40,083 bases of DNA from sequence record DRR723986_75299. One strand, written 5' to 3'. Numbering within the stretch: position 1 is the stretch's first letter; each line of letters begins with the position of its first letter. A program made the translations under genes and the position numbers. Positions 5,771 through 11,058 of the stretch are shown piece after piece. The notes beneath the pieces were generated by a model that worked only from the letters and a program-made list of their open reading frames with translations, was not told the origin of the DNA and searched no databases.

Positions 5771-7111
5771 ATGAAAACACTCTTCACCTTAATGCTATTT
5801 AGCATCACCTTCTCACTCGTTGCGCAAAACAACTCAACGAATATCTTTTTTAATGTAGACAGTGACGTCATGCGAATTAATGACCTCTATAAACTCCAAA
5901 AATTCATTGAAGAAAAACGAACGATCAAACTGATTGGTCATGCTGATAAATCTGGAAATGCAGAATACAACCTAGACCTTTCAAAAAGACGTGTTGAAAA
6001 TGTCAAGAAATATTTGGTTTCACAAGGTTATCCTGCAGAAAAAATAGCCACAGACTATCAGGGAGAATCGAATGCAGGATCTAAAGAACATTTCTTTAAT
6101 CGTAGAGTTGAAGTTATTTATAACACACCAGACAAAACACTGAATTCTTTTGAAGACTTTAAAAAATCCTTGATGCCTGCAGTACAAACCTTTTGGATTC
6201 ATAATTCAGGAGACACAACAATTGAAGGCGAAAAAGGAACTATCGTTACATTAGCTTCAAGTGCTATGATAACAGTTGACGGAACTATTCCTTCGGGTAA
6301 AATAAAAGTTGAACTAACTGAGTACACGAGTAACTCAGATTATTTTGCAGATGATTTATACACGCAATCTGGTCAAGAATTAATTGAAACCAATGGCATG
6401 ATAAAAATCGAAGCCTTTTCTGGGGAGGATAAATTGGAAATGCAAAGTGGCAGTACAATTGAAATAGGTTTTCCGAAAACATCAACCAAAGAATTCACCA
6501 ATTTCAATGGAGAACGCCTGGCTAATGGAACAATGAATTGGACCAATACGGCTATACAAAAAGACTTTAAATTAGTTTTAGATGGTTCAGACAAAGTTAA
6601 ACTCACCACCGGACAGGGATCTATGGGAAGAACCTATCCTTATCAATTATTTAGAACTGGAGATACCACTGGAATGGCAAAGTTTTTTCAAGAGCAAGAA
6701 AAAATTGAGCAATTTAAAAACAACTATTATGATGTCATTGAATCAAATAAACTTGATTTTATTAATTGCGATCGTTTTTTACGTGATAAAGGACGTGAAC
6801 TGTATAGGACTCGATTTGAAGTTTCCATTTTAAACAAACAAATTAAGTTAATGGCTGTAAATATAATTTTCAACGAAATTAAAAGCATACTTGAGCTATA
6901 CGACTACAAAGAAGGTTTTGAACAATCAAATCGATTTATTGAAATGGCGATTCCTGATAAAGCTGATGTGACCATTATGGCTATTGGTCAAAATGAAGAA
7001 ACGAAAGAGGTTTACTTTTTCAAAGAGTCAGCTAATATTACTGAGGATTACATCAAAACAGTAACGCTAGTTAAAACTTCTTATGAAGAGATTAAAAAAC
7101 AGCTAGACTAA
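5771..7111 (+). CDS. exported protein with N-terminal OmpA-like peptidoglycan-binding domain
   Basis: Signal peptide, GHADKSGNAEYNLDLSKRR and NRRVEV. C-terminal part (EGEKGT, ETNGMI, FINCDRF) is uncharacterised. Confidence 0.85.
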   Translation: MKTLFTLMLFSITFSLVAQNNSTNIFFNVDSDVMRINDLYKLQKFIEEKRTIKLIGHADKSGNAEYNLDLSKRRVENVKKYLVSQGYPAEKIATDYQGESNAGSKEHFFNRRVEVIYNTPDKTLNSFEDFKKSLMPAVQTFWIHNSGDTTIEGEKGTIVTLASSAMITVDGTIPSGKIKVELTEYTSNSDYFADDLYTQSGQELIETNGMIKIEAFSGEDKLEMQSGSTIEIGFPKTSTKEFTNFNGERLANGTMNWTNTAIQKDFKLVLDGSDKVKLTTGQGSMGRTYPYQLFRTGDTTGMAKFFQEQEKIEQFKNNYYDVIESNKLDFINCDRFLRDKGRELYRTRFEVSILNKQIKLMAVNIIFNEIKSILELYDYKEGFEQSNRFIEMAIPDKADVTIMAIGQNEETKEVYFFKESANITEDYIKTVTLVKTSYEEIKKQLD

Positions 7112-7783
7112 AGCAATCGTAGCTTCTATGGCTTGTTTTACATTCTCTCTGATTTCAAGAATATTAGCGTCCATCATATAGCAAGGCGCCGTTACAATTT
7201 TATTAGCGGTATCTACTTGAATTTCTTTAATCGTTTTCATGGCCGCTTTTGCACCTACAGATTCAATTCCGGCGTTAAAACCATTAATATCATATGGGGA
7301 AGATTCTTGATCACTACCTAAAGTCATACTTGCTGAAATCGCACTGCCTTCTAATGCCTTTGCAACAACAACAGGACTCACGCACAATGCACACACAGGC
7401 TTCCCAACATTAATCATGTTCACTAAAAGCAATTTAATCTCCGCATCAATTTCTCCCTCAGGACCTAGAAATGCCCATTTTGAAAAATTCTTGGCAGAAC
7501 CAAAACCACCCGGTATCACTAAGGCATCTATATCTGCAGGACTCACATTTTTAACTTCTGTTACTTCTCCCCTCGCAATTCGCGCTGCTTCGACCATCAT
7601 ATTTCTGGTTTCATCTTGTTCTTCACCGGTTAAATGATTGATAACATGATGCTGTTGCTTGTTTAAGGATATGCATTGATATTCATGACCCGCTTCAACA
7701 ATTGCTAACATGGCCATTGTAGCCTCTTGTATCTCAGCACCATCATAGACTCCACAACCTGAAAGTAATATTCCGAACTTCAT
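7103..7783 (-). CDS. elbB: glyoxalase ElbB (DJ-1/PfpI superfamily)
   Basis: LLSGCGVYDGAEIQEA, EAARIARG, IPGGFGSAKN, IVTAPCYM. Confidence 0.93.
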   Translation of the reverse strand: MKFGILLSGCGVYDGAEIQEATMAMLAIVEAGHEYQCISLNKQQHHVINHLTGEEQDETRNMMVEAARIARGEVTEVKNVSPADIDALVIPGGFGSAKNFSKWAFLGPEGEIDAEIKLLLVNMINVGKPVCALCVSPVVVAKALEGSAISASMTLGSDQESSPYDINGFNAGIESVGAKAAMKTIKEIQVDTANKIVTAPCYMMDANILEIRENVKQAIEATIALV

Positions 7784-7833
7784 AATTAATGTTTATTTAC
7801 TCAGATAAATTTAGCTAATTTTAAACAAGATTC

Positions 7834-8226
7834 ATGAATAAAGATTTTGATAATATTGTTTTTTATGATGGCGATTGCGGATTTTGCAATGCATCTGTTC
7901 AGTTTATTCTGAAGAAACGCAAAGAGAATTTCTATTTCAGTCCACTTCAATCTGAATTTGCCGTAGAAATACTAGGAGAGTCAGCAATTGCCATAAATCT
8001 TGAAACAATTTTCTTTAAGCGGAAACATAAAATTTACGATAAATCATCAGCTGCTTTGAGAGTTTGCGCCGGTTTAAAAGGGGCCTATCCTTTAATGCAA
8101 GGATTTTTAATTGTGCCTAAATTTCTACGCGATTGGGTATATAACGGCATAGCTAAAAGACGGCATAGAATAAAAAAGGGGTATTGTGTACTTCCAACTG
8201 AAGAAGAAAAGCAATTCTTTCTTTAA
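7834..8226 (+). CDS. DCC-family (DUF393) thiol-disulfide oxidoreductase
   Basis: FYDGDCGFCN (DxxCxxC), FSPLQS, KSSAAL, RDWVYNGIAKRR. Confidence 0.9.
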   Translation: MNKDFDNIVFYDGDCGFCNASVQFILKKRKENFYFSPLQSEFAVEILGESAIAINLETIFFKRKHKIYDKSSAALRVCAGLKGAYPLMQGFLIVPKFLRDWVYNGIAKRRHRIKKGYCVLPTEEEKQFFL

Positions 8227-8367
8227 TTACTTTTTAGGGCATCCACCGCAATGCTTGCCTTTCTTTTGATATTTCTTGCAGCATTTCTTTTTCTTTGAAC
8301 ATGCTGATAACAAATCTACCTCAGATAAAGAGGGATCAAAATTGTTGATGTGCGGGAATTCATTCAC
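8227..8367 (-). CDS. 46-aa Cys/Lys-rich small protein with FhuF-C-like CC-x9-C-x2-CP motif (not in ORF track)
   Basis: Manual translation from GTG 8367: MNEFPHINNFDPSLSEVDLLSACSKKKKCCKKYQKKGKHCGGCPKK*. Its stop abuts the DCC stop. Confidence 0.75.
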   Translation of the reverse strand: MNEFPHINNFDPSLSEVDLLSACSKKKKCCKKYQKKGKHCGGCPKK

Positions 8368-8383
8368 AGTGTAAAATTGCTAA

Positions 8384-8398
8384 TTAGAATCATTCTAA
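8384..8398. promoter_or_regulatory. perfect 7-1-7 palindrome TTAGAAT-C-ATTCTAA, putative Fur box
   Basis: Inverted repeat seen directly, between two divergent starts. Resembles the ATTTAGAATnATTCTAAAT-type Flavobacteriales Fur box (from memory). Confidence 0.7.
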
Positions 8399-8437
8399 AC
8401 AATACCACTTTTGTGGTATTTTGATTAGCTTTAGTCT

Positions 8438-9328
8438 ATGAGAATATTTGAAACCCTTGTAATTGCTGGATATCTATTGAGTTCTTGCGGTTCATCCCAA
8501 GTCAGCACTGAACATGGAAATGACGCCTTAGCAGATAAAAAAATTGAAGAAATTGATTCCACTAAAGAGGAAAAACGGGACTACCCAGACAATGTTGATT
8601 CGAGTCAGCACGCCCAGGTTTTAGCATTTATTGAGCTCGTTGAACAGAATAAATTGGATGAATTATCCAGTATGATTGAGTATCCGCTAAAAAGAGAAAG
8701 CCCTTTGGCTGATATTACTACAACTTCTGAGTTTGTCGATTATCCCTACGAACTATTTGATGAAGAAATAAAAACTCAACTTCAAAAATATTTAGATGAA
8801 CCGGATATCATTGATAGAACTATGTCAAACGGAAAGTTCGGAATATTGAATGGATTGATTTGGTTTTGGGATGGCGGCAGTGTTGCAGCACTGAACTATA
8901 CTTCTAAAAAAGAACAAGATTATATCAAATTAAGAGATGCCGAAATAAGAGCGCTACTCCACCCTTCTATTCAAAGTTTTGAAAAGAACTATTATATCGG
9001 TCAAACAGAAAAATTTACGTTTAGAATAGATTGGATGGATGATTCCTACGAAAATCTGAGATACGTCTCTTGGTCTAATAAATGGAACATGACTCAACAG
9101 CCAGATATCATTCTTGAAAACGGAATAATGGAGAAACAAGGAACAATTGGAGGATACACGACCAGCTTTGAAAATGGCGAATATTCCTATGTACTTGATC
9201 AAAGGTGGGCAGCCGAAAATGATTCAGGTCTCGGCGACTTTTTATTGGTCATGAAAAACGGCAAAGAAATAAGTTCAGCAAGGGTAACAGAAATTTTGGA
9301 CGAACTGGCCTTCTTGAAGAAAGATTAA
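8438..9328 (+). CDS. hypothetical lipoprotein
   Basis: Lipobox LLSS-C, acidic linker, 296 aa. Confidence 0.75.
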   Translation: MRIFETLVIAGYLLSSCGSSQVSTEHGNDALADKKIEEIDSTKEEKRDYPDNVDSSQHAQVLAFIELVEQNKLDELSSMIEYPLKRESPLADITTTSEFVDYPYELFDEEIKTQLQKYLDEPDIIDRTMSNGKFGILNGLIWFWDGGSVAALNYTSKKEQDYIKLRDAEIRALLHPSIQSFEKNYYIGQTEKFTFRIDWMDDSYENLRYVSWSNKWNMTQQPDIILENGIMEKQGTIGGYTTSFENGEYSYVLDQRWAAENDSGLGDFLLVMKNGKEISSARVTEILDELAFLKKD

Positions 9329-9426
9329 AGCACAAATATTGCCGCAATTATAAAAATGAAGACTATTACTATATATTGCCAAAAATCAACAAAATACTTG
9401 CCGTATCTTGACCACCATGCTCTCAT
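9325..9426 (-). CDS. 33-aa single-pass membrane protein (not in ORF track)
   Basis: MRAWWSRYGKYFVDFWQYIVIVFIFIIAAIFVL*. ATG is 6 nt after the ABC-F stop and the ORF fills the whole gap. Confidence 0.65.
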   Translation of the reverse strand: MRAWWSRYGKYFVDFWQYIVIVFIFIIAAIFVL

Positions 9427-9432
9427 TAGATG

Positions 9433-11058
<1,626 letters not shown>

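Follow-up and report, generated by a model that had tools for sequence, protein, structure and literature searches.

The 40,083-nucleotide stretch of DNA analyzed here (sequence record DRR723986_75299, hereafter the window) carries on its minus strand a 46-codon ORF at 8227..8367, consisting of 46 codons (8230..8367) with a GTG start (read as M) and a TAA stop (8227..8229). GTG is the only start available, since an in-frame TAG lies four codons upstream, although in three of the seven loci of the same genus the same codon position is ATG. The encoded protein has an acidic N-terminal half and a strongly basic C-terminal half carrying the motif CC-x2-Y-x6-C-x2-CP (C29, C30, Y33, C40, C43 and P44). 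The ORF stop directly abuts the stop of a convergent gene at 7834..8226 (+) encoding a DCC1-like thiol-disulfide oxidoreductase (PF04134, E 1.2e-20). Beyond it, an OmpA-family gene (5771..7111, +) and a DJ-1/PfpI gene (7103..7783, -) overlap by 9 nt at their 3' ends (7103..7111). On the other side, a 70-nt intergenic region containing two palindromes (8382..8400 and 8401..8420) separates the mini-ORF from a divergent 296-aa ORF (8438..9328, +), which has a lipoprotein-like N-terminus (…LLSSCGS…) and no Pfam or NCBIfam family.

An earlier note, made from the sequence alone, had described this ORF, the acidic and basic halves, the Cys motif with a spacing one residue shorter than in FhuF, and the abutting DCC gene, and all of these observations were confirmed. 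Its interpretation, a minimal Fe-S or metal-binding protein with an FhuF-type motif or alternatively a leader/core-type disulfide peptide, is only partly supported, as detailed below.

A conserved family of small four-cysteine proteins

A six-frame search of 41 related genomes found matches in 33 at E<=10. Within the same family as the window, intact homologs occur in 21 of 25 genomes at E<=1e-3, and every good match is an open frame of 45-83 codons, with a 98% identical copy in the nearest genome (G001, locus L001; G and L numbers denote the related genomes and the loci examined). A word-indexed protein search gave eight small proteins from sources including Paracrocinitomix mangrovi, a Crocinitomicaceae MAG and a Chitinophagales MAG, and every source name seen is "hypothetical protein". 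A profile built from 31 sequences (alignment A1) was searched against 1.84 billion proteins and found 251 cluster representatives at E<=1e-3, nearly all 43-60 aa; the 150 listed are 34-119 aa long (median 51), with the match usually at the C-terminus. The family is found mainly in Bacteroidota but is patchy across the phylum, with 12 of 301 evenly drawn genomes matching at E<=1e-3. A scan of named genomes confirmed at least 6 loci, including a Dyadobacter, a Cytophagales MAG, a Chryseobacterium-labelled MAG and two Desulfobacterota MAGs. In the two Desulfobacterota homologs (L064:1501-1557 and L066:1501-1563) the Cys motif sits at the N-terminus and is followed by a long lysine-rich (poly-lysine) tail, the reverse of the layout in Bacteroidota, and their neighbors (UbiA-family, PilZ) give no hint of function.

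The ORF evolves under purifying selection in this frame. Within the genus, 21 pairwise comparisons give pN of 0.16-0.28 with synonymous sites saturated (pS 0.59-1.09), and in the 19-codon conserved block of 24 loci the nucleotide diversity is 0.17, 0.15 and 0.57 at codon positions 1, 2 and 3. The possibility of a chance ORF lying over a conserved DNA or RNA element, such as the 3' end of the DCC transcript, might be suggested by the sole GTG start and the short gap between genes, but is very improbable: the frame is open in every good match, substitutions concentrate at third codon positions, the ORF is conserved in the 20 of 26 loci where DCC is not adjacent, Rfam gave 0 matches at E<=1 in 7000..9500, and no terminator-like site was found around the gene.

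The N-terminal half varies between lineages and is mildly acidic (median charge -2). The conserved C-terminal core (8236..8295, minus strand; residues K25-P44, KKKKCCKKYQKKGKHCGGCP) has the invariant pattern KKxCCxxYxxxGxxCxxCP, more fully (K)KKxCCKKYKKKGxxCxxCP followed by about three residues, with a median charge of +11. The invariant columns in the 31 sequences of A1 are K26, K27, C29, C30, Y33, K36, G37, C40, C43 and P44. Among 137 representatives of <=70 aa, Pro follows the last Cys in all 137, and the aromatic residue is Tyr in 126, Phe in 10 and Trp in 1. Further Cys in the variable half are present in 103 of the 137 and absent in 34, so that four Cys form the core. The spacing between CC and the next Cys is x8, x9 or x10 in 40, 95 and 14 of 149 representatives, giving a family motif of CC-x2-Y-x5-7-C-x2-C-P. 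An AlphaFold2 model computed with A1 is modest (mean pLDDT 66.7) and predicts a helix over residues 28-36, with a mean pLDDT of 85 for residues 31-40.

Similarity searches did not place the protein in any described family. Pfam and NCBIfam scans of the protein and Pfam scans of 31 members gave no family, a profile search of PDB sequences returned 0 hits at E<=10, and comparison of the AlphaFold2 model using Foldseek against PDB and a wide VIA-align search found no match, while ESM Atlas returned only unnamed Bacteroidota clusters. Our literature searches, within the collection covered, found no description of the family. Of 8000 scored candidates, three appeared to be longer, fused forms. Two (P0009 and P0010) continue past the usual C-terminus as ...CPKLW..., as if a TGA stop had been read as Trp by the gene caller, and are probably artefacts, while the third has a long low-complexity N-extension; none has a Pfam domain, and all three were rejected as fusions. 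A lipoprotein signal ("LSAC") in the N-terminal half was likewise rejected, since there is no basic or hydrophobic leader and the motif is not conserved.

The upstream region and probable iron-related regulation

Inspection of the upstream DNA of all loci revealed a palindrome, TTTAGAATnATTCTAAA, just before the start codon. In the window this is a 19-bp Fur-box-like sequence, GTTTAGAATGATTCTAATT (8382..8400, minus strand; located through its exact 15-mer core), ending 14 nt before the GTG and matching 16 of 18 scored positions of the Fur box reported for Riemerella anatipestifer, 5'-ATTTAGAATTATTCTAAAT-3' (PMC5609570). The published box was itself predicted, from Fur- and iron-regulated promoters, and then supported by gel shifts on four promoter fragments only; in a second study, deletion of a Fur box derepressed rhuH (PMC11967795). 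After dropping L001 as a near-duplicate of the window, a box of >=14/18 lies within 120 nt upstream in 24 of 26 loci (L012 and L022 lack it), against 4 of 569 equal-sized control windows from the same loci. Two weaker matches to the Fur core in the window (23714 and 24554) lie inside a long ORF and were treated as chance.

In 11 of 27 loci a Bacteroidota -7 element (TAnnTTTG) directly abuts the box, which would then cover the transcription start, and in many relatives the box ends 2-15 nt before the start codon. In L002, L003 and L006 the divergent 296-aa ORF is missing, and an ABC-F gene on the same strand as the mini-ORF ends 73-83 nt upstream of it, so the box can only serve the mini-ORF. 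In the window, the shared intergenic region suggests possible co-regulation of the 296-aa ORF.

The 15-mer core with <=1 mismatch occurs 7, 10, 12 and 11 times in G001, G003, G006 and G021, against 2-3 for the reversed control, and 3 times against 1 in G015. Of 20 further sites examined in G003 and G021, four lie inside long ORFs and the others lie upstream of ORFs. The ten neighbors scanned with Pfam are an IscA-like gene divergent from succinate dehydrogenase cytochrome b, a SufS-like aminotransferase, NqrA, imelysin, a multihaem cytochrome c, FeoB, a TonB-dependent receptor, a DUF2271 protein and HemB. The occurrence of boxes next to iron-using as well as uptake genes (L043-L048 and L053) hints at direct Fur control of iron use in this family. 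In G006 (L042, G006:C2:86565), a Fur-like box also lies 20 nt upstream of a 186-aa ORF resembling, by eye, an ECF-type sigma factor. Fur-family genes are present in all five genomes searched, with two copies in four of them. Related genomes are not independent samples, but the box is kept across some twenty genera. We interpret this, from sequence alone, as Fur repression, with induction upon iron starvation being the likely regulation.

The second palindrome, AATACC-N8-GGTATT (8401..8420), lies directly upstream of the Fur-like box. It occurs in 2-6 copies per genome against 0-1 for the reversed control in five genomes. All 8 further sites examined (the palindrome was noted at L046, L058 and L070-L077) have a Fur-like box of >=14/18 within about 20-110 nt, always in the order palindrome, box, gene, and precede feoA, imelysin-like lipoprotein genes, iscA-like genes and, once, a DCC1-like gene. 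It may be a promoter element or the site of a second iron-related regulator. In the window, the plus strand reads CACTTTTG, a near -7 element, inside this palindrome.

Neighborhood and candidate functions

The convergent DCC neighbor recurs in 6 of 26 loci, spread over three genera (window, L002, L006, L007, L012 and L020), and a DJ-1/PfpI gene follows on the same strand in six loci. In another set of genera the mini-ORF is followed by a 164-188-aa ORF without a Pfam family and then by a GDPD-family gene. Across L013, L015, L017, L019, L021, L024 and L068, the following same-strand ORF is 137-188 aa and lies after 8-125 nt in the six loci other than L068; the two scanned (L013 and L068) have no Pfam family, and the GDPD assignment (PF03009) was shown for L013, the others being grouped by BLAST or by eye. 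This arrangement may be an operon.

The alternative raised in the earlier note, a peptide whose cysteines are oxidized or modified by the DCC1-like oxidoreductase, is not supported, and this reading, or that of a secreted cationic antimicrobial peptide, is very unlikely. Although the two stop codons abut and one DCC gene (G021, L074) lies behind a Fur-like box plus the second palindrome, the genes are convergent and thus not co-transcribed, and synteny already weakly refutes this reading. Only 1 of 23 DCC genes of the family has a Fur-like box (none lies upstream of the gene here, with a best score of 11/18 for the near-identical G001 copy), and only 4 of 23 have a mini-ORF within 1.5 kb. DCC genes were therefore rejected as regulon mates. 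No signal peptide, leader motif, maturase or exporter is conserved nearby, and the neighbors differ between genera.

The analysis establishes in silico a conserved protein-coding gene under purifying selection, a strongly cationic C-terminal knuckle of roughly 20 residues with four invariant Cys, and an upstream region carrying the Flavobacteriales Fur box, whereas expression, Fur binding, metal binding and function are inferred. The protein is probably a new player in how these bacteria cope with iron shortage, and its most likely function is that of a stand-alone metal or Fe-S knuckle of the iron-starvation response. In our preferred but tentative model, Fe-Fur would occupy the box when iron is sufficient and block transcription, and the protein, presumably cytoplasmic, would be made when iron runs short. 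Its four Cys would hold a metal center, most likely a [2Fe-2S] cluster bound as in the single-loop CC...CxxC site of the siderophore reductase FhuF, while the lysine-rich flanks would dock the knuckle onto an anionic partner such as a ferric chelate, a ferritin surface or another iron store, so that electrons could be passed to release iron. No FhuF_C or Bfd-type domain was found in the five genomes searched, while 2-3 ferritin-like genes per genome are present. However, a 20-residue loop without a protecting fold may not hold an oxygen-stable cluster. A bolder and doubtful extension is that this is the smallest natural ferredoxin yet seen, a free-standing knuckle of about 20 residues binding a [2Fe-2S] cluster through the FhuF-type CC...CxxC loop, made only under iron starvation and replacing the missing FhuF and Bfd proteins in many Bacteroidota and some Desulfobacterota as the reductant that frees iron from ferric chelates or ferritin, with the second palindrome perhaps marking a further, undescribed iron regulator.

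A Cys4 site flanked by lysines fits equally well a zinc knuckle that binds nucleic acid. In this rival view, which we consider possible but less likely, a Fur-controlled zinc (or mononuclear iron) knuckle would bind RNA or DNA through its lysine-rich flanks and act as a small regulator or RNA chaperone of an iron-sparing response, working like the small basic Fur-regulated proteins FbpA/B/C of Bacillus subtilis. The high positive charge fits this reading at least as well, a Cys4 knuckle with a short helix is typical of nucleic-acid-binding zinc knuckles, the boxes near iron-using genes make an iron-sparing program plausible, and no family hit contradicts it. Conversely, no homology to any nucleic-acid-binding family was found in the Pfam, NCBIfam and PDB searches, no RNA partner or target is known, and the adjacent CC pair with a conserved aromatic residue and a terminal position is the specific signature of the FhuF cluster loop, not of common zinc knuckles.

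An iron, heme or other metal buffer, chaperone or sensor, holding released metal transiently during starvation or signaling its level, comparable to the role proposed for the cyanobacterial Fur-regulated Cys-rich protein IsiE, is less likely still. The conserved Fur box, the four invariant Cys and the additional Cys of most members are compatible with this role, and the invariant Cys-Pro could alternatively act as a heme-regulatory CP motif. However, one site per 46 residues is a poor store, the extreme lysine content is not explained, and the reading rests on analogy rather than on homology to IsiE or metallothioneins.

Flavobacteriales and their kin are major degraders of organic matter in waters and soils where iron is often limiting, yet their iron-starvation response is little studied outside a few pathogens. 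The findings provide an unannotated micro-protein family covered by no Pfam or NCBIfam model, a clear regulatory handle in the Fur box, and a sharply defined four-Cys site amenable to direct spectroscopic testing. If the site holds an Fe-S cluster, it would define a minimal cluster-binding module and identify a missing step of iron mobilization in a large phylum; if it binds zinc and RNA, it would be the first candidate iron-sparing regulator in Bacteroidota.

Comparison with known systems

FbpA, FbpB and FbpC of Bacillus subtilis are likewise very small, basic proteins of the Fur regulon, and are not known to be Cys-rich. IsiE of cyanobacteria is encoded by a previously overlooked 59-codon gene and is Fur-regulated, Cys-rich and of unknown function (PMC8634477); its motif is different (CXCC/CXXC), it occurs in another phylum and it is not polybasic. 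The bacterioferritin-associated ferredoxin Bfd (PF04324) is a small, Fur-repressed, four-Cys [2Fe-2S] protein that mobilizes stored iron. Its Cys pattern differs (C-x-C ... C-x2-C), and Pfam scans, which include Fer2_BFD, gave no hit for the window protein at E<=1 or for any of 31 members at E<=10, but the absence of PF04324 matches from the five genomes with ferritin-like genes leaves its niche open. Within the Flavobacteriales Fur regulon, no homolog of the mini-protein appears among the 11 loci of Table 5 of the Riemerella study (PMC5609570), although the upstream box matches the published one and lies next to feoA/B, TonB receptor and imelysin genes in relatives.

The closest resemblance is to the C-terminal [2Fe-2S] loop of the ferric-siderophore reductase FhuF (PF11575; crystal structure 7QP5), but membership of that family is not shown. 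PF11575 matches 0 of 31 members at E<=10, gives no hit on the mini-ORF locus and none above the cut-off in five genomes, and matches 0 of 201 Bacteroidota genomes. NCBIfam TIGR03950 gives only a sub-threshold hit to its last 22 positions (E 0.077; 12.8 bits against a cut-off of 137.9). A search for FhuF relatives returned only close enterobacterial proteins with almost identical tails. The mini-protein has 46 aa against 262 and lacks the N-terminal FhuF domain (PF06276) present in those FhuF proteins, its flanks are lysine-rich rather than Arg/hydrophobic, and its spacing is x9 instead of the family-defining x10 (CC-x10-C-x2-C in E. coli FhuF). An hhalign comparison of A1 with the whole of FhuF placed columns 27-46 exactly on residues 240-260, albeit with a probability of only 3.2% (P 0.014). 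At the level of the motif the likeness is real: E. coli FhuF ends ...RRTCCQRYRLPDVQQCGDCTLK and the mini-protein ends ...KKKCCKKYQKKGKHCGGCPKK, both with two basic residues before CC, a Tyr three residues after it, then C-G-x-C and about three residues to the C-terminus. Expression of fhuF is iron-regulated, as is inferred here for the mini-protein. In the FhuF structure all four ligands lie in one loop, the two adjacent Cys bind different Fe atoms, and the cluster sits between positively charged patches (bioRxiv 10.1101/2023.07.04.547673), suggesting that a short cationic loop is in principle enough to ligate such a cluster. The mini-protein may thus work like the cluster loop of FhuF, or like Bfd, without being a demonstrable member of either family.
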